From a phage: a stretch of 64,000 nt of DNA. Both the position numbers and the translations under genes were made by a program. The notes beneath the pieces are model-generated. The model did not search any database. It was not told the origin of the DNA and was given only the letters and a program-made list of their open reading frames with translations. Where the stretch lies: the sequence record OZ346189.1, one strand, 5' to 3'. Positions 2 to 49,105 of this stretch are shown piece after piece; positions within the stretch are counted from its first letter, which is position 1; the number at the start of each line of letters is the position of its first letter.

Positions 2-325
2 GGCGTTAGTTTCAAAAATGGGAAAAAACCAGAAGCGCTTTTGAAGCGAATTTTCGAAATGTGTACGCGAGAAGGCGATTTGGTATTGGATTCATTCGGT
101 GGTTCGGGAACTACTGCTGCTGTAGCTCACAAGATGAAAAGACGTTGGATCTCAATCGAGCTAGGTGATCATTGTCATACCCATATTATTCCGCGCTTGG
201 AAAAAGTGATCGATGGTGAAGATCAAGGTGGTATTTCTAAGTCTGTAAACTGGGAAGGTGGTGGTGGCTTCCGCTATTACAAACTTACCCCGACCTTAAT
301 TGCGAAAGATAAGTCTGACCAATAA
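2..325 (+). CDS. DNA methyltransferase, C-terminal part (5' end lies upstream of window)
   Basis: Frame open from window edge; ...KPEALLKRIFEMCTREGDLVLDSFGGSGTTAAVAHKMKRRWISIE carries the AdoMet-binding D-x-F-x-G-x-G-T-T motif of beta-class N6A/N4C DNA MTases; stop TAA 323-325. Confidence 0.6.
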   Translation, partial: GVSFKNGKKPEALLKRIFEMCTREGDLVLDSFGGSGTTAAVAHKMKRRWISIELGDHCHTHIIPRLEKVIDGEDQGGISKSVNWEGGGGFRYYKLTPTLIAKDKSDQ

Positions 326-644: not shown

Positions 645-1039
645 TGATTACAGGTGTGAAGGTTATCCAATACCACTTAACCAAATTGGAAGATGCTGAA
701 AAAGAGCTTGCAGAAGTTCTGAATAGTGGATATACTTTGCTATCATGCGCCTGCTCAGACACCTACGCTGTGTGGACACTTATCCGGAAGGAGGAGCCTG
801 CAGGGATCTTGGTGCCAAACCCTAAGATTATCAGTGAAGTGGATGACTGCTCTCAGGACGGCCTGTCAGAAGGCTGGGAAGTATGGGAAGGTGGTGAAAA
901 CCCTGCACCAGGTAAGTGGGTAAAATACAAACTACGTAGCGGTGCACAGCACGCTGGATACTCTGATAACCTGGACTGGAGTCATTCTTCACCGGAATCA
1001 TTGGTAAGTGCATATGATATCGTTGCTTTTCAGGAATAA
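644..1039 (+). CDS. hypothetical protein
   Basis: 131-aa ORF, start overlaps previous stop (ATGA coupling); no recognisable motif. Confidence 0.45.
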   Translation: MITGVKVIQYHLTKLEDAEKELAEVLNSGYTLLSCACSDTYAVWTLIRKEEPAGILVPNPKIISEVDDCSQDGLSEGWEVWEGGENPAPGKWVKYKLRSGAQHAGYSDNLDWSHSSPESLVSAYDIVAFQE

Positions 1040-4480: not shown

Positions 4481-7400
4481 ATGAGTATGTGGAATTTTGA
4501 CTTTGAGGCCTCAGGTCTTCTGGACGAGGAAGATCTTTACTACCATTGTGGCCTGTTTAAAGAGTTGAATAAAAATAATTTTATGTTGTTTTTGCCTATC
4601 AATGATAGATCTCATTACAGTGAAGAGGAGGTTGAAAAAGCAAAACAATTTATGCTGGCAAAGCAAGATATCTATCCTAGCTGCTCTGTCCGTATTGCGG
4701 ATTTCAGCCAGCTTGAATGGTGGTTAACCGGGAACTCCGATTGGTCACCCACATCATTAAGTTGTCACAACTGTTTTAGTTATGACTTTATCTTGATGGA
4801 GAAGCTGTCTGGTATTCATTTTGATATGTTCCGTGATCCCAAGTGTATGGGGACAATCAATAATCATCAGGTGAACCTGTTCGACACTCTGCCAATGAGT
4901 CGTATACTATGGCCCGACAGACCGTTACCTAAAGGATGCCCTGATTCTGTATACAATCCTGTTACAAAACGTATGCAGCAGGTAGGTCCTCATGGCCTAA
5001 TGGCGTGGGGGTACGCTTTAGGAAACCAGAAGGTTAAAATTGATGACTGGAGAAATTTACCTCTGTGGAAGTATGTTGATCGTGTATTCGAGGACGTTAT
5101 CATCCAGGAGCTGCTCTGGAAAGAGCTGGTAGCGGAATCAAAAGGTGTATTCTACGGCAAATCTGACATGCAGAACTTTATGTACGATCCAGCCAAAGAG
5201 AAGCCGAAAGGGTTCAAGAAGATTACCTGGAAGAATGCATTACGCCGAGGCATGCTGCAGCACTTCCTGATGGAGCTGCAGGCCCGTCAGGGTGTATACT
5301 TCGACATAGATGGAGCTATTGCTTTACGTGACCGTTGCGATGCGTGGATGAAAGAAATCGCTGATCGTGTTGAACCACAACTACCTTTAAAAGAGCTGTC
5401 AATGTCTCAGCGGCCCAAGTTCCCTGAAAAGCCGTTTAACCAAGACGGGACAATCTCTAATAATGGTTGGAAATGGTTAAAAGATAAGCTTGGCTATCCT
5501 GTAGACATGAGTGCTTTAGAGTTCAAAGCCCCGCCTAAGCGAGCATTTACCTCTACAGGAGATGTCAGCAAGATGGGGATAAAATGGTGTGAAGAGATGG
5601 GCTGCAAAGACCCCGATAAGATGGCTGATTTCTTGAGAGGCTATATTAAGGGCACCTCCACACCACAACCCTTACCTAAAGAGCTGATGGATCAGGCAAT
5701 AAGTGATCTGCAGCAGAAGCGAATGCCTGACTGCAAGATACCTATGAAAATCAGCAATCAGGACGACATCAAGCGATACCTAATCAGTGCTGGTTGGCTC
5801 CCAACAATGTGGAGAACTAAAGATGTAACTAAAGACAGCAAGAAGAAAGCTTTACCTGATGCAGATGTTGATGCACGAGTATATGCATATATGGACGAGC
5901 TTTTGGAGTCAGAGTATTGTGACCTAATTATCAACTTCTGGAACAAAACTGATGCTAAGTTCCAGACAACCGTGCACAAGTTCCGAAGCTTTCCTAACTC
6001 CGAAAGGATTAAAAAGGAAGTATTCGGGAAAATACGTAGAAAAGCCAGGGCACTTATTACTTCTCCGCAACTGAAAGATACGTTTGGACACCTATGCCCA
6101 AATCTTGAAAAATTGAACGGAGAGATGGCTAAAGATATCGTCTTGTGGTTATCATTGCGAAACCGCAGATCGGTCCTTGATCCAATCAAGGAGGATAAGG
6201 TTGATACTGGTCTTCTTAATCACCCACGTTTGAAGATTGACCATAAGCTTCCTGCTAAAAGCTCTGGATTAACAAACACTTCCAGACAGAAACACAGTAT
6301 TTGTGCAAACATGCCTAAACCATCTCCTAAAGTGGTTATGGGTAAAGAGATGCGTAGTCTGTGGGGTGTTCCTCCGGGATACTTTGAGATCGGTATTGAC
6401 GGGTCCAACTTAGAGCAGCTTATCGGGGCTTGGGGTGCCTTTGAGTTCGACAACGGCCTGTATTATGATGTTGTAAGTAATGGCGATGCACACTGTTATT
6501 CAGGAGATACACAAATTCTCACGGAGAAAGGGTGGGTGAGGTTTGAAGATCTTGATCCGGGAACACAAGTGTTCCAGTACGATCACAACACCTCGTCAAT
6601 GAACCTTGTTACTCCATTAAATTACGTTAAGCGTAGTTATTGTGGGGATATGTATCATTTCCACAACAGTAGTGTGGATTTTATGGTTACAGATCAACAC
6701 AGGATGCTGACTGTGGATCACAGAAGCAATAAATTGTTTGAAGATTTGGCAAAAGACCTGAAAGCAGGTAAAGGGTCTAATTCAGGAAGAAGGTTTATCC
6801 ATGCGGCAGAGTTTTATGGGAATACAACCTTATCTCCTGCCCAGGTTAATTTGCTTATTGCTATTCACGATGATGGGCACTTGCATACAAATAAGGACGG
6901 CAGCATCGTGTGCAGGATTCAGGTCGGAAAGGGAAGAAAAGTTGCAACGCTTTTAGATACTTTTTCTGCTCTAAGCCTTAGTTATGTAGAGCAGAGCGGG
7001 AAAACCACAAAAGGGGGCTTACTGGCGAGAAGGTTCCAATTCCACGTTCCGTCCTGGGTATTTGAGTTTTTGGACAACAATAAGGATTTCACCTATAACC
7101 TGATGAACCTTGATAAAGAATCTAAAAACCTGTTTATAGCTTCTTTATCTAACTGGGACGGGTGGGTATCTTCCGAAGGTGGAAAGGTTGCTTACTACTC
7201 CCAGGCCGAGTGCAGGAAGAAATCTGTAGAGGTGGTGTCTGCGCTGGCTACTCAGTGTGGTTTACGGAATAATACGGTGGCGATTCACAAAAAAGGTCGT
7301 GCCGTGCAGCACAGAATCACAATTGGTAGCAAACAGAGAGCAGGGTTGCTGACACTATCTAAAGAGTCTGTCGAGGTGAGCGGTTCTTTGGTTTATTGCG

Positions 7401-7879
7401 TTACCGTCCCTTCTGGAGCAATCATTGTGAGAAGGAATGGTAAAGTGGCAGTGTGCGGTAACTGTAATAACGCCAAAGCTTACTCTTCTGTAGCAGGCAA
7501 GGAGATTTCCCGTAACGATGGTAAACCTATCACGTATGGGGTTATGTATGGGGCACAAAAAGATAAAGTTGCAGATATGCTGGACATCTCCCCAGAGTTG
7601 GGACAAAGGGTAATCGATGCACTCTGGGATGCCAACCCAGGTCTTAAGGGGCGCAAAGAGGATCTGGAGAAATTCTGGGAAGCAACAGGTAAGAAGTTTA
7701 TCTACTCTTTTGATGGTCATGCTATCTGGACCCGATCTAAACACTCTTTACTTAATGCATACCAACAAAATGGCGGTGCATCGTTGTGTGACTTAGTTGG
7801 AATACTCATGCACCACCAGATGGTGAAGCGTGGGTGGTACGATGAAGGTGTTCGTCGTATTATTTATTACCATAAATAA
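4481..7879 (+). CDS. DNA polymerase, family A (Pol I/T7 gp5-like), N-terminal and catalytic part; contains an intein; interrupted before C-terminus
   Basis: SD AAGGAGAA; motif A IDGSNLEQL, Pol I-like DAH segment, motif B SRNDGKPITYGVMYG, Q..G.A.D segment QQNGGASLCD and HDE-like WYDE near end; stop TAA 7877-7879. Confidence 0.85.
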   Translation: MSMWNFDFEASGLLDEEDLYYHCGLFKELNKNNFMLFLPINDRSHYSEEEVEKAKQFMLAKQDIYPSCSVRIADFSQLEWWLTGNSDWSPTSLSCHNCFSYDFILMEKLSGIHFDMFRDPKCMGTINNHQVNLFDTLPMSRILWPDRPLPKGCPDSVYNPVTKRMQQVGPHGLMAWGYALGNQKVKIDDWRNLPLWKYVDRVFEDVIIQELLWKELVAESKGVFYGKSDMQNFMYDPAKEKPKGFKKITWKNALRRGMLQHFLMELQARQGVYFDIDGAIALRDRCDAWMKEIADRVEPQLPLKELSMSQRPKFPEKPFNQDGTISNNGWKWLKDKLGYPVDMSALEFKAPPKRAFTSTGDVSKMGIKWCEEMGCKDPDKMADFLRGYIKGTSTPQPLPKELMDQAISDLQQKRMPDCKIPMKISNQDDIKRYLISAGWLPTMWRTKDVTKDSKKKALPDADVDARVYAYMDELLESEYCDLIINFWNKTDAKFQTTVHKFRSFPNSERIKKEVFGKIRRKARALITSPQLKDTFGHLCPNLEKLNGEMAKDIVLWLSLRNRRSVLDPIKEDKVDTGLLNHPRLKIDHKLPAKSSGLTNTSRQKHSICANMPKPSPKVVMGKEMRSLWGVPPGYFEIGIDGSNLEQLIGAWGAFEFDNGLYYDVVSNGDAHCYSGDTQILTEKGWVRFEDLDPGTQVFQYDHNTSSMNLVTPLNYVKRSYCGDMYHFHNSSVDFMVTDQHRMLTVDHRSNKLFEDLAKDLKAGKGSNSGRRFIHAAEFYGNTTLSPAQVNLLIAIHDDGHLHTNKDGSIVCRIQVGKGRKVATLLDTFSALSLSYVEQSGKTTKGGLLARRFQFHVPSWVFEFLDNNKDFTYNLMNLDKESKNLFIASLSNWDGWVSSEGGKVAYYSQAECRKKSVEVVSALATQCGLRNNTVAIHKKGRAVQHRITIGSKQRAGLLTLSKESVEVSGSLVYCVTVPSGAIIVRRNGKVAVCGNCNNAKAYSSVAGKEISRNDGKPITYGVMYGAQKDKVADMLDISPELGQRVIDALWDANPGLKGRKEDLEKFWEATGKKFIYSFDGHAIWTRSKHSLLNAYQQNGGASLCDLVGILMHHQMVKRGWYDEGVRRIIYYHK
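6494..7462 (+). mobile_element. intein with LAGLIDADG-type homing endonuclease domain inside DNA polymerase
   Basis: 323 in-frame codons between Pol motifs A and B; starts CYSGDTQIL (block A), TDQH (block B), LLIAIHDDGH and LFIASLSNWDGW (LAGLIDADG-like), ends ...LVYCVTV...VAVCGN followed by Cys +1. Confidence 0.7.
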
Positions 7880-8377
7880 CATTGTGGCTTCATAGAGTAA
7901 TCTATGTCGAATAACCTCTTTAACTGCGGGAAGCCTAAACCTTATGGCAAGGTAATCCGCAACGAAGCGCTCAAAAGAGCGAACGCTCAGAGGCCATTCC
8001 GAAAGGAAGTAGACCAGCAAGTGCGGTCGAAATGGGAGGATTCCTGTGGTTGCTTATCATAGGAATATGAGATGGTCCGATCCTACGTGAAAACGTATGG
8101 CTATGCACGTAATGGTGCGGGGTAGCTTAACGACCTACCTGAACTATTGGATGAGTACCAACTTCAAGTGCCTGACACACCGAAGTATAAGACTGTGTAC
8201 ACCTTCGACACAATTGAAGAACTGGAAGCATTTAAGGCAGAGCAGGAAGCCAAACTTCATGTGTTCGACGGTCATAAGTACAAAAAGGCACGCAAGGATG
8301 AGGACGGAAACGAAGTGGTTGACAGAGACGGAAACACGGTGTACGATCCTATCCTGAACGATGACGGAAAGCTTGAA
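7847..8377 (+). other. intervening sequence in DNA polymerase gene (candidate group I intron; boundaries approximate)
   Basis: In-frame stops at 7877, 7898 and 8060 separate ...GWYDE from the polymerase C-terminus encoded in the same frame from about 8378; no large ORF inside. Confidence 0.4.
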
Positions 8378-8503
8378 CTTATCTGGAGCCCTGTGGGTGA
8401 AATGGTGGTACATTGCTTCTGGCAAGCTTCTAAAATGATGGGAGTCCCGTTCCAGATCACAGGTGAATACTTGTGTGGTCGTAATTGGGGTAATTGTCAC
8501 TAA
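8378..8503 (+). CDS. DNA polymerase C-terminal exon (ORF open from 8147)
   Basis: LIWSPVGEMVVHCFWQASKMMGVPFQITGEYLCGRNWGNCH matches the conserved ...VPL.V..G.NW..AH terminus of Pol I/T7 gp5; same reading frame as 4481-7879. Confidence 0.55.
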   Translation, partial: LIWSPVGEMVVHCFWQASKMMGVPFQITGEYLCGRNWGNCH

Positions 8504-41425: not shown

Positions 41426-41899
41426 TTAGTCAACCTGAACCCAACCACCTGCTGCCTTTTTAAACATTCTTTGGTTATCACTACCTCTGAAGGGTTTTTT
41501 GGTTGGGTTATCTTTTTCGTACTTACCATCCATAATGTAATCGACACTATCTTTAATGTAATCGGGAACCTCTTCAAACAAATACCCTGTGTACACCCAG
41601 ATAGTTTTTGTGTTGCCGAAGTGTTCACGGATAGCGCTAATGATCGAGTACATACCCTCAATATTGTAAGGCGCTAAAGGTTCGCCACCGCATAATGTAA
41701 CGCCAGTAATGTGTTTCGGCTCTATAGAGTGAAGTATACTCTCAATAGTGTCATTTGTTAACGGTTCCCCTTTAGCTGGTGACCAAACACTTTTGTTTTG
41801 GCAACCGACGCAGTGATGTGGGCAACCAGAACAGAACACCGTTGTCCTAATGCCTGGGCCGTCAACCATGCTACACTCTATAATATTAACAACATTCAT
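41426..41899 (-). CDS. nrdG: anaerobic ribonucleotide reductase activating protein
   Basis: 157 aa; radical-SAM-type Cys cluster CSGCPHHCVGCQN near N-terminus; adjacent to nrdD. Confidence 0.75.
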   Translation of the reverse strand: MNVVNIIECSMVDGPGIRTTVFCSGCPHHCVGCQNKSVWSPAKGEPLTNDTIESILHSIEPKHITGVTLCGGEPLAPYNIEGMYSIISAIREHFGNTKTIWVYTGYLFEEVPDYIKDSVDYIMDGKYEKDNPTKKPFRGSDNQRMFKKAAGGWVQVD

Positions 41900-42463: not shown

Positions 42464-43726
42464 TCAGCAACTACAACTTCCATAGTGCTTAACTCGCTCG
42501 ATAACTTCCGCTTGCTTACCTTTATTGTAAGGACGGGAGTTAGGACTGGAAAGGTATCCAGACACACGTCGAATTACACTGATCGTTCCCTCTTCATGGT
42601 TTCCACACTCTGGGCATACAAAGCCTTTAGCTGTTGCACTGAACTCACCAGAGAAACCACACTTGAGACATTTATCCACAGGTTGGTTAATACCAAAATA
42701 CATAATATGTTTATACCCGAAGTCAACAAGAGCCTCTAAAGCATCCAGGTTGTTTTTCAGGTTAGGTGTCTCTACGTATCCAATGTTGCCACCAGAGGAG
42801 ATCATAGCAAAACCTTCCTCATACTCCCACTTATCAAAAGGAGAGCTATTTATCCACACTGGCTGATGGAAACTGTTGGTGAGATATTCATGCTCGTGCT
42901 TTAACACTTCTGGATATTCACGATCCAGACAGGTTGCAGCTTTATAGCATAGACTCTCAGAAGGAGTGCCGTACAAGCTAAATGCTAGTCTACTTTCCTT
43001 CTTGTATCGCTCACAAGCATCTCTCATGTGCTGAAGGATTCCAAGAGCTAAAGCCTTGTCACCTTCTCTGCCCAAAATCTGACAGGTTTCATACACACCA
43101 ATATACCCAATACTGATGGAAGCGTACCCGTCATAGAAGAGTTTATCAATACTTTCTTCGGGATCCAGGCGAGCAAGAGCGCCTTCACACCACATGATGG
43201 GGTTCTGCCCTGCCTTTGTTCCTTTTAGACGGTTAACCCTTACAAGGTGAGCCTCGTATGCAAGATCCAAGTATTCGTCAAGAACTGCAAAGAAATCAAC
43301 ACATTCCGTCTTAGCTTTTGCCGCAATCATTGGCAGGTTAAGGCTAACAACACCCAAGTTGAATCTGCCGAGGTATTTCTCCTCACCTGTTTCCAAGTCA
43401 TTGTATTTGCTAAGAAAACTCCGGCAACCCATACTCGTTACTTTGCCATCTGTCGAGCCTGTCACTTTACGATTTAGTGGAACAGAAACAAAGTCAGGAT
43501 AAATCCGCTCTGCAGAGCATTCCAGAGCTAATCGTTTCAAATCATAGTTAGGATCTCCGGGGTTCATGTTGACACCCTCTTCTAGGAAGAACAGCACTTT
43601 AGGGAACACAGGTGTGATACGTTCTTCACCAAGACCCATTTTGTGGACTTTCAAGTAATTTTTGGTAATCATTCTACCAAAGACCGAGGTATCCAGTCCT
43701 AAACTTAATGTGATGAATGGAGTCTG
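42464..43726 (-). CDS. nrdD: anaerobic ribonucleoside-triphosphate reductase, exon 2
   Basis: ORF open upstream of first Met to 43762; QTPFITLSLGLDTSVFG...ITPVFPKVLFFLEEG...GDPNYDLKRLALECS matches NrdD core; C-terminal glycyl-radical motif RRVSGY and Zn site CLKCG...CPECG. Confidence 0.8.
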   Translation of the reverse strand, partial: QTPFITLSLGLDTSVFGRMITKNYLKVHKMGLGEERITPVFPKVLFFLEEGVNMNPGDPNYDLKRLALECSAERIYPDFVSVPLNRKVTGSTDGKVTSMGCRSFLSKYNDLETGEEKYLGRFNLGVVSLNLPMIAAKAKTECVDFFAVLDEYLDLAYEAHLVRVNRLKGTKAGQNPIMWCEGALARLDPEESIDKLFYDGYASISIGYIGVYETCQILGREGDKALALGILQHMRDACERYKKESRLAFSLYGTPSESLCYKAATCLDREYPEVLKHEHEYLTNSFHQPVWINSSPFDKWEYEEGFAMISSGGNIGYVETPNLKNNLDALEALVDFGYKHIMYFGINQPVDKCLKCGFSGEFSATAKGFVCPECGNHEEGTISVIRRVSGYLSSPNSRPYNKGKQAEVIERVKHYGSCSC

Positions 43727-44523
43727 CTGTCTCCTCCCTGTGTTTCCACAGGGCCAGACTATCTATTACTCTACTTCAATAAGATAATAACCCTTTATTG
43801 TGAGATGCTTACCTTCGGCATTTCCTTCGATAGCCCTGTGAACGTTACCTACGTTCAAATTTAAGGCTTTTGCACAGGCGTAGAGTGAAGGATATTCACC
43901 CACCAAGATTTTCCCTTTGTATGCCTGCACTTTCCTATAGCACTTACCTGGACAAAGTCCTGTTCGGAAAGCATGTCTCTTATTATCTTCCGGCAAAACC
44001 CACTCTAGGTTAGACGGATGATCATTCAATGTATTGCCATCTTTATGATTCACTTCCCAGTTTTCAGGGTCTTCTGGGACATCTGGCAAACAATACAAGG
44101 CAACAACCCTTGAGGTTTGGATTCGAATCTTTTTACCTTTGTGGTTGAAAGAGTACATATAACGGCGTTTAACATGCTTATTACCTTTTCCATAACCTCC
44201 CCACAATATTGGGTGCAGCATTCCACGTTTTCCGTATACGTTTCCAACTTCATCAATCACATAGTTTGATTCTTCACCATTAAGAATGATCTTTTTCATA
44301 GAGCCTCTCCATTTCGAAGTTAGTATTTCAACTAACCCCTACACTACTTGGTTCAGAAATGTTTGTCAAGCATCTCTGCCTTTCGTTAGTCGTTACAACC
44401 GTTCCAACTCCTGTAAGAACTAGTCACGGGATTGGCATAGCTTTCGCCTTAGCGTTCCCCGTTAGCCGGATTTACCGACCCCTCTTATGAGGTTAGGAGA
44501 GTTTTACAACGGCCAGTTTGTTA
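43727..44523 (-). mobile_element. group I-type intron in nrdD carrying an HNH homing endonuclease gene
   Basis: 797 nt between NrdD-homologous segments; 5' exon ends ...AACGGU (U at -1), intron begins with in-frame UAA, ends ...CAG (G at 3' end); joins ...NTLTSVNG to QTPF... exactly as in uninterrupted NrdD. Confidence 0.65.
43766..44299 (-). CDS. HNH homing endonuclease (intron-encoded)
   Basis: 177 aa; HNH motif NHKDGNTLNDHPSNLEWVLPEDNKRH. Confidence 0.75.
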   Translation of the reverse strand: MKKIILNGEESNYVIDEVGNVYGKRGMLHPILWGGYGKGNKHVKRRYMYSFNHKGKKIRIQTSRVVALYCLPDVPEDPENWEVNHKDGNTLNDHPSNLEWVLPEDNKRHAFRTGLCPGKCYRKVQAYKGKILVGEYPSLYACAKALNLNVGNVHRAIEGNAEGKHLTIKGYYLIEVE

Positions 44524-45384
44524 ACCGTTGACAGAAGTTAACGTATTGATTTGATAGAGCAAAGTCTGCATGCTGTCAAATACGTCTTTATCTGTCATTT
44601 GCATTGCAACAGTCTCAGCATCTGGCAACCAATGTTCCTGGCAAAATTTAAGGTTCTTCTCATAAGTCGCCTCAGCATACTGTGCCAAATAATGGTCAAT
44701 ATGGCTCATAGTCTGACCCCCATATTGAGCACTAGCTACTGCACTAGAGATTTGGCTAAGGATTGTTGTTGCAACCCCTATTGACTTCGGCTTACTGACA
44801 TGGGCGTTACCAATGTTGAATCCGTTTTCCAACATATCTGGATAATTTACCAAACAACAGTTTGTTAACGGACTGATCAAGTAGTCAAGATCATGCACAT
44901 GGATGAAGCCTTTATTGTGCTCTTCTGAGACACGGTCTGGCAGGATCTGTGTTGATGCAAGGTGTTTGCTAAGGATGCCTGCAAGCAGGTCACGATGAGT
45001 GTGTACATGATTGGTAGGCTTATTTGCGTTTTCTTTTGTAAATTCATCACAAGTTCGATCCAAGAAGCCACTAATATCTGCAAGCAGTTTTCCACCTGCC
45101 TCTCTGTTATTATCTCTTGTCTGTCTATACTGGATGTATTCTCTGGCTGCACATTTTAAACCCATATCCATAAGAGCATCTTCAACAAGGATATGGATAT
45201 TTTTTACAGAGATCGTGCACTGGTCGGTTGGTAGATTGTTAGCAACAACTTCATTAACCGCACAAGCGATCCGGTAAGCTTCTTCTTCAGTATGTCCAGA
45301 CTCAAGTAAGGCGGACTCTGCCGCCTTGATCACCTTAATTCCGTTATAGACCTCTTCTCTACCGTCCCGTTTTACAACTTTCAC
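44524..45384 (-). CDS. nrdD: anaerobic ribonucleoside-triphosphate reductase, exon 1
   Basis: 287 codons; ATP-cone MKVVKRDGREEVYNGIKVIKA, conserved DLLAGILSKHLA and HVHDLDY segments; stop codon lies in intron. Confidence 0.8.
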
Positions 45385-45659
45385 TTTTTCTCTCCAAAAC
45401 CATTCTTAACAAAAGAGATGAAATCGTCGGCACCGCCTATATGGACACTTTCAAGATTGCTTTCTAAGAAGATCTGCGGCAACGTTCTGGGGACAATTGG
45501 ACTACACTTCTCAATAAGCTCTTCTTTTGTGTAGCCCTCGCCAAGTGTCTTATATACAAAAGGCAGACCTTTGCTGATTGCAAATTCTTTTGCTCTGACA
45601 CAGTGTGGGCAGTTATCCTTACCGTAAATGATGATGAAAAAAGATTTTTCGCAGCTCAT
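45381..45659 (-). CDS. glutaredoxin/NrdH-like redoxin
   Basis: 92 aa; active site CPHC in YGKDNCPHCVRAKEF. Confidence 0.65.
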   Translation of the reverse strand: MSCEKSFFIIIYGKDNCPHCVRAKEFAISKGLPFVYKTLGEGYTKEELIEKCSPIVPRTLPQIFLESNLESVHIGGADDFISFVKNGFGEKK

Positions 45660-45662
45660 ATA

Positions 45663-46751
45663 TTAAAACTCCCAAATTTCTTCTTCAGCGTCGTTAACAG
45701 TTGTGTTGACGCGGTAGTCAGTGTTCGACATTTCTTGGTTCGCCGTCTGTTGCAATGAAGGTTTCATCCACACCTGCATAAACGGTAGCGGGTCCTTTGT
45801 TGGCGGCACAAAGTCTTTGTCGATGTCGTAGTAATCATAAATCGGTGAGCAGTTATAGTCAACCCATTCTTTAAGCAACGGTGAGTTAAGACCTATAATC
45901 GCTCTTCCTTCGCTGAAAATATAGTCACTCCAACCGTACTCTTTGGTTCGCACTTCATCAAGAATCTCTTTTAACTCCCCTTTTATCTCAAGGAAGCTTT
46001 TCTCCCATGCGGGATCATTAAGCAGGATATCAATGATGGCAAAATCACCTTTCGAATGTAGCATTTCGTCAAGCATGATTTTTTGAACAAGCTGCGCCAC
46101 CTGAACAAAGATACCCTGTTCAGCTACTGCGAAAGTGCATGCAAAACTTGCAATAAACTCAATACTTTCCAGAGCTAAAAGTGCAAAAAGCGCTCTAAGA
46201 ATGCATTTCCGCACAACATCTTCTTCAACACTAGAAGGATCCAGTCGGTATTTTGCACCAATAACCTCAAGCTCTTGCATGTATTTGACAATAACGCCGG
46301 ATCTGCTCAGAACGTTTTGGTTTTCCTGAATCTCTTCTATAATCTCACGGGCATTGGGGAGGCATTGTCTAACAATCTCTGAGTAAGTTAGTGCGTGAAG
46401 AACTTCAATCTCCGACTGTTTCATCAATAGAGTGAAAAGCTCACTATTAGTGATGAATGGTGAAAAGAGGCAGATGATCGATCTTGCCGCAACGCTATCA
46501 GCCTCCCATTGCCACATCAAGGTCTGAACCATCACATCATAAGTTGACTTTGAGCATGTTACAAAATCTGAAATAGATTGCGACAAATCCACTTCATCCT
46601 CTGCCCAGTCTTGTTCTTTTTGTTTTTTGTACAGTTCGAACAGTTGTGGATATTTTTTGTTGATAGAGTCGTACATACCCATTTGCTGTCCCAGAAACAG
46701 CGGATAGTCACCAGTTTTATGAGCGGTGTTCTCAGCATTAAATACAGCCAT
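45663..46751 (-). CDS. nrdB: ribonucleotide reductase small subunit
   Basis: ORF track 45663-46811 runs through an intercistronic hairpin; likely start MAVFNAENTAH at 46751 after AGAGGTAGAA; ferritin-like RNR beta. Confidence 0.85.
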   Translation of the reverse strand: MAVFNAENTAHKTGDYPLFLGQQMGMYDSINKKYPQLFELYKKQKEQDWAEDEVDLSQSISDFVTCSKSTYDVMVQTLMWQWEADSVAARSIICLFSPFITNSELFTLLMKQSEIEVLHALTYSEIVRQCLPNAREIIEEIQENQNVLSRSGVIVKYMQELEVIGAKYRLDPSSVEEDVVRKCILRALFALLALESIEFIASFACTFAVAEQGIFVQVAQLVQKIMLDEMLHSKGDFAIIDILLNDPAWEKSFLEIKGELKEILDEVRTKEYGWSDYIFSEGRAIIGLNSPLLKEWVDYNCSPIYDYYDIDKDFVPPTKDPLPFMQVWMKPSLQQTANQEMSNTDYRVNTTVNDAEEEIWEF

Positions 46752-46768
46752 TATTCTACCTCTAAAAT

Positions 46769-46782
46769 GGGGCCGAAGCCCC
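46769..46782 (-). terminator. intercistronic hairpin between nrdA and nrdB (attenuator/processing site candidate)
   Basis: Transcript-sense GGGGC-UUCG-GCCCC followed by AUUUUA, 13 nt before the nrdB SD. Confidence 0.35.
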
Positions 46783-46789
46783 TTTAAAA

Positions 46790-49105
46790 TTATAGTGCAC
46801 AGCTTTCGCAATACGGATCTTCAACTGAACTATCTGCAATCAAAGGATAGTTCTTTCTGGTTTCATCTTCAGCCTGTTTCTTGGCATGAAGTTCCTCTGC
46901 CAAGGAGTCACCCGCACCAACCCTAGAGTTTAAATAATACCATGTCTTCATTCCGAATTTAGTGGCACGGATAAGGTACCCTAGCTGCTCCTTCATTGAA
47001 ATTTTACCATCTTTCAACTTGGTGTAGTCTATGTATAAATCCGCGCTGATTGCCTGACCTGTGAATTTTTGAATCACAGCATACATATCGATCATGTCGT
47101 TAGTATCAACGTCCCAAGCCGAAGTGTAATACTCTTTCAACTCATCATAGTCAGGAACGATAAACAGCACCTGCCCTTGTGGCGACTTTTTAAAGATAAT
47201 GTGCTCACGGACAGGATAAACCCCGTTAGTGGTGTTTGTTGCCAGCGAAGAGCTTTCATTAGGCATATATGCTTCAAGAACGCTATTACGTAGCCCACCA
47301 TTTTCAACGATTTCTTTACGTAACCCTTCCCAATCCTGTTTAAGAGAAGGATCTTTCACCACGCTATCGACCTCTTTGTTATAGGTGTCGATTGGTAACC
47401 AACCTTCTGGATATTTTGTTTTATGCATCCACTCGCAGACACCACGCTCTTTTGCCAACCGTAAACTTGCCTTATGCAAGCTGTAGCTGTGAAGTTCTGC
47501 AAGATCGTGAACGAGCTGTTTACTTTCAGGAGACCCGTAAGTAACCTTGTGGCTGGCAATAAAATGTGCAACATTGGTAAGGCCAACCCCGATGGATCTG
47601 CGTTTTTTAACTGTGCTTTCCATATTTTCATACGGATATGTCATGATTTCCATAACATTGTCAATCATAAGCACCGTATAGTATGCAACATCCTCATACT
47701 CCTCTGGAGTAACCCTCCCAGCTACAAGAGATGACAGGAAGCACAATGCAACCTCTCCATCATCAGCATCGTACTTGAAGATATTACGCATATCTGAATA
47801 GCCTTTTGTCGGGAGGGCTATTTCTGCACACAGGTTGCTTGAATAGATCACATCTTTAAAAGGTGTATGTCTATTCATCTCATCTGTCCAGTATACGTAC
47901 AGCCTTCCCACCTCAGTGCGCTGCGTGATCAGTTCAACAGCAAGATCTCTAGCTCGGATCCATGTTTTAGGAATACTGTCATCTTTAGCAATACGATCAA
48001 CCTCTGCATCAAACTCCTCTATAGACATGGTGAAGATACCCTCATGCAGTTGAGGCGCGTGCTTATAAGAAACAAGCATCCAATCTAAATTCTTAGCCAC
48101 ACGGTTGATAAACGACCTATTAATACCGATGGAGTAGTCCATGGTGTTGATTCTTTTTGAAGCAACAGTCATAGGGTTTCTCAAACGGATTAGCTCATCA
48201 ATCTGCGGGTCCAGTGCAAGGAATGATACTGTTGCAGAACCACCACGTGATTGTTGTCTGTTCTCCTTAACCCCAGCATCAATACCTCGATAATATGGAA
48301 TCTTACCCATATGTTTAATAGTGTTACCACGAACACCATCGCCTGCAGATCTTGAGGATAAGTAGTAGCCGATACCTGCTTGGTTAACCGTCATTGTGTA
48401 CGCAACTTCACGTGCCACACCAATAGATTTTGCTGTATCGTCAGCTTTTATTACACAACAAGATGCATACCCTGTCTTACCTGTGCGCAGCCCGTTTAAG
48501 TACGGTGTCGGGGCATTGATCTTTAAGTCGGACAGGTAAGTGTATAATTTTACAACATCGTTGATACGACGTTCTTTCGGCATATTCTTCATGACAGCCA
48601 TTGCTATCCCCATAAACATCATCTGGGGAGATTCAAACAAGGTGTCTTTAAGAGTATCCTTGATCCCGTATTTGTCGCGAAACTGTTTAAGGACTGCATA
48701 GCCATAACCGAGATCTTTACTGTGATCAATAACAGTGCCTAAAGTGTTTAACTCGGTAAAGCTATAACCCATATCCTCCCAATACCCTTTCTCAACCATG
48801 TCGTTGTAAAATGATGGTAAGGAAGGGATCTTTGTAAACCCTCCAAAAGCCTCTTTATAAATCTGACCAATAAGAACACGACCAGCCATACGGGAATGTG
48901 CTTCGTCTTTACGGCTAACACAGGAGTCTATGATAGCTTGGTTAACTTCTTTGGTTGTACATCCATCATACAGTCGTTTGTATGCATCCAGTGCAATGTG
49001 TGACCAATTGCCGTTACCGTCGTCACCGAAAATAGCTGCCTTATTTAAACGTTCTGGATCGAATGCCACTTCACATCCGTTGCTTTTAATTACCTTGGTG
49101 ATCAA
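46790..49105 (-). CDS. nrdA: ribonucleotide reductase large subunit
   Basis: 771 aa; N-terminal ATP-cone, catalytic SSNLCAEIALPT, C-terminal redox pair ...CESCAL. Confidence 0.9.
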   Translation of the reverse strand: MITKVIKSNGCEVAFDPERLNKAAIFGDDGNGNWSHIALDAYKRLYDGCTTKEVNQAIIDSCVSRKDEAHSRMAGRVLIGQIYKEAFGGFTKIPSLPSFYNDMVEKGYWEDMGYSFTELNTLGTVIDHSKDLGYGYAVLKQFRDKYGIKDTLKDTLFESPQMMFMGIAMAVMKNMPKERRINDVVKLYTYLSDLKINAPTPYLNGLRTGKTGYASCCVIKADDTAKSIGVAREVAYTMTVNQAGIGYYLSSRSAGDGVRGNTIKHMGKIPYYRGIDAGVKENRQQSRGGSATVSFLALDPQIDELIRLRNPMTVASKRINTMDYSIGINRSFINRVAKNLDWMLVSYKHAPQLHEGIFTMSIEEFDAEVDRIAKDDSIPKTWIRARDLAVELITQRTEVGRLYVYWTDEMNRHTPFKDVIYSSNLCAEIALPTKGYSDMRNIFKYDADDGEVALCFLSSLVAGRVTPEEYEDVAYYTVLMIDNVMEIMTYPYENMESTVKKRRSIGVGLTNVAHFIASHKVTYGSPESKQLVHDLAELHSYSLHKASLRLAKERGVCEWMHKTKYPEGWLPIDTYNKEVDSVVKDPSLKQDWEGLRKEIVENGGLRNSVLEAYMPNESSSLATNTTNGVYPVREHIIFKKSPQGQVLFIVPDYDELKEYYTSAWDVDTNDMIDMYAVIQKFTGQAISADLYIDYTKLKDGKISMKEQLGYLIRATKFGMKTWYYLNSRVGAGDSLAEELHAKKQAEDETRKNYPLIADSSVEDPYCESCAL

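Follow-up and report, generated by a model that had tools for sequence, protein, structure and literature searches.

The nrdD gene of an rV5-like phage is very probably interrupted by a mobile group I intron with an HNH endonuclease gene

Ever since T4, phage ribonucleotide reductase genes have been a textbook setting for group I introns that encode homing endonucleases. The T4 nrdD (sunY) intron, with I-TevII, interrupts the same host gene, in the same conserved region, as the intron described here. I-TevIII of phage RB3 is likewise an HNH enzyme, and its group I intron, of the T-even type, interrupts another ribonucleotide reductase gene, nrdB. The best match to our endonuclease among solved structures is I-HmuI (PDB 1u3e), an HNH homing enzyme from the DNA polymerase intron of phage SPO1 that nicks one strand; at only 24 bits this match is distant, and the host gene and target differ. 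For the T4 intron endonucleases, the ribosome binding site is sequestered by RNA structure (PMC2988022).

The same intron, in the same gene and at the same site, is present in sister Vequintavirus phages, with DNA that is 95-99% identical and an HNH protein that is 98-100% identical. Among the BASEL phages, MaxBurger (MZ501093), EmilHeitz and WalterGehring have the HNH form, and AlexBoehm, HeinrichReichert and RudolfGeigy have an ORF-less form at the same nrdD site; the intron is also found in FFH2, slur16 and FV3. Some sister phages carry a second nrdD intron, which is absent from the copy studied here. The BASEL records give nrdD as a joined coding sequence, with proteins that equal our predicted join exactly and with intron boundaries that were set by comparative annotation (PMC8594841). 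A literature search turned up genome annotation as the only account of this intron, and no RNA or enzymatic data for the element. The intron is thus already known at the level of annotation, where the MaxBurger and AlexBoehm GenBank proteins use the exact junctions, and is an unremarkable member of a familiar class.

The window, a stretch of 64,000 nucleotides from sequence record OZ346189.1, belongs to a Vequintavirus (an rV5-like coliphage), and we compared it with 120 related phage records. The features of the locus are collected in Table 1. One minus-strand ORF (44521-45384) ends in NTLTSVNG and a stop, and a second (42464-43672) is open upstream and reads ...QQTPFITLSLGLD. Exon 1 matches positions 1-154 of the Pfam NRDD profile together with the ATP-cone, and exon 2 matches NRDD positions 156-562 and Gly_radical. 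Excision of 43727-44523 joins the exons into a 707-aa NrdD, which aligns with T4 NrdD (PDB 1h78) without a gap across SSNG/QTPFV (E=3e-167) and is identical at 702 of 707 residues (99%), with no gaps, to the uninterrupted 707-aa NrdD of a sister phage (QHR73053.1). The ATP-cone supports the GTG start that we assign to exon 1, 71 codons upstream of M72, at which the BASEL coding sequences begin. The earlier note had proposed that a 797-nt intron splits nrdD and that joining the exons restores a 707-aa protein with the conserved NG-QTPF; the collinearity with T4 NrdD and the near identity to the sister protein bear out both proposals.

Table 1. Positions of the nrdD exons, the intron, its ribozyme elements and the endonuclease gene in the window.
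Feature	Position	Strand	Remarks
nrdD exon 1	44524-45384	-	GTG start, 287 codons; ATP-cone and N-terminal NrdD part
nrdD exon 2	42464-43726	-	starts with CAG, Q288; 420 codons and stop; holds the glycyl-radical domain
Group I intron, 797 nt	43727-44523	-	first bases UAA, which stop exon 1 in frame; last base (43727) the terminal G (omega-G)
P1 5' strand CAACGGU	44524-44530	-	last 7 nt of exon 1
Internal guide sequence GCCGUUG (P1 3' strand)	44507-44513	-	first G (44513) pairs with U at -1; outermost pair (6-29) covaries C-G/A-U with the exon
P3 5' strand CUCUCC	44496-44501	-	
Two extra hairpins, P3.1/P3.2 (names coined here), P3 to J3/4	44465-44492	-	CCUC-AUAA-GAGG; GUCGG-UAAAU-CCGGC
P4-P5-P6/P6a domain	44397-44461	-	CGGGG ... 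GAAA-tetraloop P5a ... UCCCG, GAC...GUU
P7 5' strand GACUA	44387-44391	-	
P7.1 (44350-44380) and P7.2 (44319-44336) hairpins	44319-44380	-	GUAGGG motif between them, as in T4 introns
P3 3' strand GGAGAG	44305-44310	-	doubles as Shine-Dalgarno sequence of the HNH ORF
P8 5' strand GCUCUAU	44298-44304	-	includes A and U of the HNH start codon
HNH homing-endonuclease ORF, 177 aa and stop	43766-44299	-	fills the P8 loop; motif H85, N97, N106
P8 3' strand GUAGAGU	43768-43774	-	last two sense codons of the HNH ORF and first base of its stop codon
J8/7 AAUAGA	43762-43767	-	U at 43765 private to the window copy; G in other copies
P7 3' strand UAGUC	43757-43761	-	
P9 hairpin CCCUGUG-GAAA-CACAGGG	43736-43753	-	

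Both splice junctions could be placed with the help of natural alleles of the site. Among the 120 related records, 28 have the HNH-bearing intron, 14 have a 257-nt ORF-less intron in its place and about 77 have an empty site. The flank of the ORF-less introns is a variant one, GTAAACGGT...CAAACCCC. Intron-less sister phages have 604 nt where the window has 1401 nt, a difference of exactly 797 nt, and read GTCAACGGG/CAAACTCCA at the insertion site (here and below, a slash in a sequence marks the junction). The 5' splice site lies after GGU, where the U at -1 forms the U.G wobble of a 7-bp P1, as the earlier note had it in starting the intron at UAA. Of its account of the 3' junction, the terminal G, the length of 797 nt and the protein sequence VNG-QTPF hold, but the wording CAG/ACU does not: the site lies before CAG, between 43727 and 43726. 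The predicted ligated-exon junction is ...GUCAACGGU-CAGACUCCA..., and P10, read straight from the sequence, has only 3 bp (CAG with CUG). The intron ends ...GACAG/CAG in the HNH form and ...GACCG/CAA in the ORF-less form. GenBank proteins QXV82698.1 and QXV75731.1 are identical to the joins made with these junctions on their own genomes. The junctions are thus fixed independently, by the natural empty-site alleles, by an ORF-less intron with a single available G and by the matching joined proteins in GenBank. The match of the joined NrdD to T4 NrdD and to the uninterrupted sister protein is far beyond chance. GACAG/CAG/ACU holds a second G in an identical context, and in principle the 3' splice site could instead follow the second CAG, three bases downstream (43724/43723), to give a 706-aa NrdD without Q288. 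We consider this extremely improbable: Q288 is kept in the intron-less alleles, in T4 NrdD and in 9d3x, the ORF-less intron has no second G at its end, and the empty sites lack 797 nt rather than 800.

The insert has the architecture of a T4-type ribozyme. Unconstrained minimum-free-energy folding of the ORF-deleted intron recovered P1, P3, P3.1, P3.2, P4-P6, P7.1, P7.2, P8 and P9 (z = -6.1). Across seven sequences, 45 specified pairs gave standard pairs in 100% of 312 cells, compared with 27-51% in slid controls. Pair counting in these sequences found both-sided changes in P1, P3.2, P6a and P9, although in essence only two lineages contribute compensatory changes, which therefore amount to few independent events. 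Because the MAFFT alignment of the two intron forms was wrong across P7.1-P8, the pair-counting tool could not score P3 and P8, which were checked by hand instead: in P3, CUCUCC with GGAGAG flips to CUCUGC with GCAG(A/G)G, and P3 is also complementary, with wholly different sequences, in five other phage introns. The order of elements (P7, P7.1, GUAGGG, P7.2, CGAAAY, P3', P8, J8/7, P7', P9) is that of the T4 nrdD intron, and the IA2 hallmark is present, with P7.1/P7.2 between P7 and the P3 3' strand, followed by CGAAAU and P3'. Two other assignments of P3 were rejected. Placing P3' in CGAAAG-GCAGAG, directly after P7, leaves one mismatch, whereas GGAGAG is a perfect complement, stands in the T4-like context GUAGGG-P7.2-CGAAAU and was chosen by the free fold. 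The P3 5' strand in the Rfam alignment of the sibling intron (CGCUG, adjoining J3/4) contains a mismatch, and introns of the window type have nothing that corresponds to it. On this comparative evidence, a T4-type (IA2-like) group I core with compensatory support is demonstrable in the predicted intron RNA.

The window intron and the T4 nrdD intron have in common an IA2-type core without P2, the P7.1/P7.2 hairpins and the motifs GUAGGG and CGAAAC, and their P7 and J8/7 are almost identical. They differ in that the T4 intron lacks the two hairpins between P3 and J3/4, and that its in-frame UAA comes two codons after the 5' splice site, whereas that of the window intron is immediately at it. In T4 the insertion lies within codon Y180, 32 nt upstream of the window site, which falls between G190 and Q191 in T4 numbering. 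The T4 endonuclease is of the GIY-YIG type and encoded 3' of P9 (intron nt 236-1012; PMC2988022), whereas the window has an HNH gene in L8. We therefore rejected the idea that the element is an orthologue of the T4 nrdD intron and I-TevII, as the insertion site is 32 nt off and the ORF is HNH rather than GIY-YIG.

The earlier note would have given up its reading if a covariance-model search found no group I core, and at its gathering score of 50 bits RF00028 indeed returns none at this intron; the core is shown instead by comparison and unconstrained folding. At the gathering threshold, an Rfam search of the whole window did not find the nrdD intron and returned only a different intron at 7864-8099. 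A relaxed RF00028 search gave 23.3 and 11.3 bits for the nrdD intron, and restricting the search to the 5' ribozyme half gave no better score. The ORF-less sibling intron aligned with the full model, including P1 across the splice site, at a sub-threshold 29.8 bits (E=7.6e-6). At gathering, six sister loci yielded only a second nrdD intron, in L012. The low score probably stems from the 523-nt ORF in L8 (P8) and from the extra hairpins at P3.1/P3.2 and P7.1/P7.2, and introns built in this way are missed by the Rfam group I model.

An HNH gene cassette that splits nrdD without splicing, leaving an enzyme that works as two polypeptides, would also fit the Rfam result and the many database records that annotate two separate nrdD coding sequences and an HNH gene. 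In Aeromonas phage Aeh1, a ribonucleotide reductase split by mobE reportedly works as two polypeptides. Here, unlike in the Aeh1 nrdA/mobE type of split gene, the downstream fragment lacks a translation start of its own at the break, and the insert contains a ribozyme core. The first start codon in exon 2 is that of M306, and a fragment translated separately would miss 18 conserved residues (QTPFITLSLGLDTSVFGR); the group I core is complete and shows compensatory changes; and the 257-nt ORF-less version at the same site is intelligible only if it splices. HNH inserts that do not splice have been recorded in phage genes (PMC7344957), but we think it very improbable that this is one of them. We consider it very likely that a mobile group I intron, T4-like and of type IA2, separates codons G287 and Q288 of nrdD in this rV5-like phage, and infer from its sequence that it is spliced.

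One base sets the window copy apart. At 43765, in J8/7, it has U in place of a G; the change is absent from all 28 database copies, 22 of which match the G version exactly in the final 74 nt, and the T4 nrdD intron also has G at the aligned position. Given that J8/7 is a conserved junction of the catalytic core, the window copy might splice poorly or not at all, with NrdD reduced or lost. Such a defect seems quite unlikely to us, because the position varies in related phage introns (A in L013), all helices and both exons are intact in the window copy, and the U may be a sequencing error.

The ORF inside the intron, which the earlier note had read as HNH, matches Pfam HNH_3 at 29.5 bits (cut-off 24.8) and PHROG 59 'HNH endonuclease' at E=4e-26. 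Its alignment with I-HmuI (174 aa) is nearly full length, covering residues 8-160 of 177, and places H85, N97 and N106 on the I-HmuI motif. An I-HmuI_NUMOD-like module scores 18.4 bits, below its cut-off of 27, and the PDB alignment extends to residue 160. The ORF is intact and 98-100% identical in 28 of 28 carrier records. Outside these 28 phages, no close relative of the HNH protein or of the P7.1-P8 module was found, and the next-best protein is 32% identical. A scan inside the intron for a sigma-70-like promoter upstream of the ORF found none.

Three allelic states (empty, ORF-less and HNH-bearing) coexist within one genus and also within one species (slur16 compared with bov10K2). Phages with the ORF-less intron have 14 synonymous changes in common, all of which fall within positions -58 to +12 around the site. 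An IMG/VR scan with the core pattern found 15 related introns, of which only L012, on an rV5-like contig, lies at this nrdD site. The patchy distribution within the genus and the co-conversion-like tracts may be read as indirect signs of homing. It could be that the intron splices but that the HNH protein is not, or is no longer, the agent of its spread, being inactive or a nickase with another role, with spread left to general recombination or to an endonuclease acting in trans. The weakly recognisable C-terminal DNA-binding module would fit this, as would the ORF-less intron, which carries no such gene yet has spread among backgrounds, and trans-homing is documented in T4 (PMC2988022). We judge this unlikely, as the ORF is full length and conserved in every carrier, its motif residues align with those of I-HmuI, and genes of active intron endonucleases typically lie, as this one does, in a ribozyme loop with a Shine-Dalgarno sequence of their own.

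The two nrdD intron forms are 86% identical over P1-P7 and 83% identical over J8/7-P9, and their P7.1-P7.2-P3'-P8 blocks are at shuffled-level identity. They may therefore be a mosaic rather than a simple ORF-plus/ORF-minus pair, in which the endonuclease gene entered a resident intron with its own structural cassette and P3 flipped a base pair to match; we offer this reading tentatively and regard it as doubtful. CGAAAG-GCAGAG, directly after P7, may be a leftover of the old P3'. If the mosaic reading is true, the P3 core helix doubles as a translational off-switch for the endonuclease, with the Shine-Dalgarno sequence as its 3' strand.

On the reading that we prefer, a mobile, self-splicing intron, a ribosome translating exon 1 would halt at the UAA formed by intron nt 1-3. 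The intron would fold into P1, P3, the two extra hairpins, P4-P6, P7, P7.1, P7.2, P8 and P9; an external guanosine would attack after GGU; and the terminal G (43727) would then take the G-site, so that the exons are ligated GGU-CAG to encode the 707-aa NrdD. With the HNH Shine-Dalgarno sequence in the P3 3' strand and the AUG in P8, ribozyme folding and endonuclease translation would be mutually exclusive. The ribosome binding site would thus be held by a core helix, P3, whereas the T4 cases use a dedicated hairpin. In a mixed infection, by analogy with described homing endonucleases, the I-HmuI-like HNH enzyme may cut or nick the intron-less allele GTCAACGGG/CAAACTCC, as carried by rV5, and recombinational repair of the cut allele would copy the intron in. 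The sequences themselves show the layout of the intron, its junctions, its allelic states and its compensatory changes; the activity and specificity of the endonuclease, its translational coupling to ribozyme folding and, again by analogy, homing are all inferred.

For annotation, these results mean that the two 'nrdD fragments' of many rV5-like records, and the 'hypothetical protein' that separates them, should become a joined 707-aa NrdD and an intron-encoded HNH endonuclease. Biologically, little is new in this intron. Within one genus, there is a natural series of empty site, ORF-less intron and endonuclease-bearing intron, together with further intron sites in nrdD. The series would lend itself to work on the homing cycle, co-conversion tracts and the coupling between ribozyme folding and endonuclease translation.

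Our analysis supported the interpretation in the earlier note that nrdD of this phage is interrupted by a group I intron containing an HNH endonuclease gene. Its observation that nrdD lies in two pieces with an HNH ORF between them was accurate, as indicated by the ORF coordinates (Table), the split NRDD profile and the HNH matches of the middle ORF to Pfam, PHROG and I-HmuI. The N-terminal ORF matches the ATP-cone and positions 1-154 of the NRDD profile, and the C-terminal piece, from Q288, matches positions 156-562 and the glycyl-radical domain (Pfam).

Table. Features of the nrdD locus in the window and elements of its intron (P, J and tail elements in intron numbering)
Feature	Position	Strand	Remarks
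nrdB	45663-46811	-	
Glutaredoxin gene	45381-45659	-	
nrdD N-terminal ORF	44521-45384	-	GTG start, 287 aa, ends ...NTLTSVNG then stop
HNH ORF, 177 aa	43766-44299	-	Pfam HNH_3 above cut-off; PHROG 59 'HNH endonuclease', E=4e-26
nrdD C-terminal ORF	42464-43672	-	Frame open upstream, reading ...QQTPFITLSLGLD
nrdG	41426-41899	-	
P1	Last 7 exon nt CAACGGU / GCCGUUG 11-17	-	U.G at splice site
P3	CUCUCC 23-28 / GGAGAG 214-219	-	Complementary strands
P3.1/P3.2	32-43 and 45-59	-	Hairpins between P3 and J3/4
P4-P6	63-127	-	GAAA loop
P7	GACUA 133-137 / UAGUC 763-767	-	Pairing
P7.1, P7.2	144-174, 188-205	-	Either side of GUAGGG motif, then CGAAAU
P8	GCUCUAU 220-226 / GUAGAGU 750-756	-	Encloses HNH ORF
J8/7		-	AAUAGA, between P8 and P7 3' strand
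P9	771-788	-	GAAA loop
Intron 3' end		-	9-nt tail after P9, last base G

Excising 43727-44523 (797 nt) fuses GGU with CAG to give a 707-aa NrdD, and this join, proposed in the note, was borne out by alignment with T4 NrdD (1h78; gap-free across ...SSNG/QTPFV..., E=3e-167) and with a sister phage's uninterrupted NrdD of 707 aa (702 of 707 residues identical, 0 gaps). The joined protein also aligns without gaps, from residue 1, with a full-length bacterial NrdD (9d3x). An alternative acceptor 3 bases further on was rejected because the conserved Q288 would be deleted. On DNA of phages from the BASEL collection, the predicted junctions yield the proteins deposited as QXV82698.1 (MaxBurger, with the HNH gene) and QXV75731.1 (AlexBoehm, without it). 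BASEL records of these two types place the NrdD start at M72; the homologous window stretch is 45172-45384 (-). The upstream GTG at 45384, which overlaps the glutaredoxin stop, extends NrdD by a complete ATP-cone (Pfam E=2e-14); the GTG-start protein aligns with 9d3x from residue 1, and deposited proteins of other phages include 707-aa versions.

The nrdD region is 95-99% identical to that of Vequintavirus (rV5-like) coliphages. The full insert occurs in 28 of 120 matching phage records and a shorter one, in the same place, in 14; the remainder, minus one fragmentary record, have 604 nt where the window has 1401 nt, exactly 797 nt less. These intron-less alleles read GTCAACGGG/CAAACTCCA, coding VNG/QTP, and rV5/V5 itself is intron-less at this site. 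The short insert, an ORF-less intron of 257 nt, starts with UAACAAACUGGCCGUU, as in the window, and ends ...GACCG/CAAACC, with a single G available as terminal G. Both forms are found within the species 'Vequintavirus slur16' and are already annotated in BASEL records, with nrdD as a joined CDS and intron boundaries fixed by comparative annotation (PMC8594841); the rV5 genome paper describes introns in the terminase gene only (PMC3606486). Sister genomes already carry annotations of the element, which is an ordinary member of its class. Eighteen records (MG0656xx; A135, C2, C9 and others) bear the name 'Campylobacter phage' and contain Vequintavirus sequences that barely differ from those of coliphages; A135, the sole one opened, is marked UNVERIFIED, and the host label is doubtful. 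Escherichia phage V18 (KY683736) has exon flanks typical of ORF-less-intron carriers, yet lacks the intron; its junction is 2 nt short (GGT--AACCCC) and its unannotated nrdD has several further frameshifts. Either this gene is decaying or the sequence is of low quality.

The Rfam check proposed in the note had a divided outcome, as RF00028 missed the nrdD intron at the gathering threshold and matched it in part at relaxed thresholds. At gathering, the sole match in the window was another intron (7864-8099), with none in nrdD; formally, the nrdD intron stays below the gathering score (50 bits). Relaxed searches gave 23.3 bits, reliable over J8/7-P7'-P9 only, and a second partial match of 11.3 bits over P4-P7. 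The alignment of the ORF-less sibling covered the model from end to end and took in P1, which spans the splice site; it scored 29.8 bits (E=7.6e-6 in a small search), below the 50-bit cut-off. In our reading, the L8 ORF and the additional hairpins limit the sensitivity of the model, and the low score does not speak against a ribozyme.

When the intron was folded without its ORF and without constraints, the minimum-free-energy structure (z = -6.1) contained all non-pseudoknot helices. When 3 HNH-form and 4 ORF-less sequences were aligned, the 45 specified pairs were standard in 312 of 312 cells, compared with 27-51% when partners were slid by 1-3 columns. Both-sided changes, mostly reflecting two lineages, were found in P1 (C to A in the exon together with G to U in the guide), P3.2, P6a and P9; P3 has C-G in one form and G-C in the other, and in FV3 the G.U closing P8 is A-U. 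Introns on other viral contigs (L013, L016, L018) likewise have two hairpins inserted between P3 and J3/4; their sequences are unrelated but their P3 strands are complementary. Such an insert is not new, since P3.1 is listed among optional group I pairings (PMC3873408). The window carries a private G-to-U change in J8/7 at 43765 (- strand U), one base past the HNH stop codon, seen in 0 of 28 database copies, 22 of which match the G version at every position of the last 74 nt. This change may be harmless, as a related intron has A there.

The T4 nrdD intron, taken from the T4 genome, has the same element order and several of the same motifs: a UAAAA-P3-UAAAA-P4 start without P2, then P7.1, GUAGGG, P7.2, GAAAC, P3', P8, AAGAUA and UAGUC. 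However, it lies 32 nt upstream of the window site, inside codon Y180, and its enzyme I-TevII is a GIY-YIG protein encoded 3' of P9, whereas the window enzyme is HNH. The window element is therefore of the same ribozyme type and in the same gene region, but not an orthologue. In unrelated IMG/VR viral contigs (L014, L021, L024), a third nrdD site, at the glycyl-radical motif (...SRVCG/), is occupied by an HNH-containing group I intron that shares the P4/P7 core motifs. Some sister phages have a second nrdD intron 300 nt inside exon 2, at residues 387/388 (rV5-like contig L012, 2246-2485, RF00028 70.5 bits; also A135 and, by coverage, phita32, C2, JEP1, A147, navn and 241Ecol014PP); the homologous window site (43427/43426) is empty. 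Elsewhere in the window, a PolA-type DNA polymerase gene (4481-8503, +) seems to have two insertions, an intein-like one (CYSGDTQILTEKGW ... VAVCGNCNN, in the 1132-aa ORF 4481-7879) and a group I intron without an ORF (7864-8099, 64.7 bits, the only gathering-level RF00028 match), with its frame picking up again in ORF 8147-8503.

Comparison of the two nrdD intron forms indicates that they are mosaic. They share 86% identity over P1-P7 and 83% over J8/7 and everything 3' of it, whereas the P7.1-P8 block shows 44.8% identity against 45.7 +/- 3.0 for shuffled sequence; the window-type block is restricted to the same 28 records. Right after P7, within P7.1, the window has CGAAAG-GCAGAG (44373-44385; intron nt 139-151), which mimics J7.2/3 and P3' of the ORF-less intron (CGAAAC-GCAGAG) and may be a rearrangement remnant. 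All five ORF-less carriers examined have the same synonymous substitutions next to the insertion site, 10 within the final 58 nt of exon 1 and 4 within the opening 12 nt of exon 2. Outside this -58/+12 tract they resemble various backgrounds, and AlexBoehm does not differ further from the window for ~350 nt. The tract looks like co-conversion from a distant donor.

All carriers have an intact and highly conserved HNH ORF; outside the 28, the top phage protein match reaches 32% identity. Its nearest solved relative is I-HmuI, which it matches over almost its whole length, with H85, N97 and N106 aligned with the motif. A good Shine-Dalgarno sequence lies 7 nt 5' of the AUG, and we saw no sigma-70-like promoter inside the intron. 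The MaxBurger enzyme is annotated 9 codons longer because a substitution of G for A in its P7.2 loop (L001 ~1975) creates an in-frame upstream AUG; the window has AUA at the homologous 44324-44326.

Splicing and cleavage by this element are predictions from its sequence. Ribosomes would halt at the splice site at the in-frame UAA of intron nt 1-3, the ribozyme would excise itself in the usual two steps initiated by guanosine, and translation of the ligated mRNA would yield NrdD. Because the HNH Shine-Dalgarno sequence is the P3 3' strand and P8 includes the first two bases (AU) of the start codon, the folded ribozyme should hide the HNH start site and ORF translation should block folding. Sequestration of the ribosome binding site is a known theme in all three T4 intron endonucleases (PMC2988022); its execution by a core helix is what we infer here. 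Given its patchy distribution, the element may home into the ~77 intron-less relatives.
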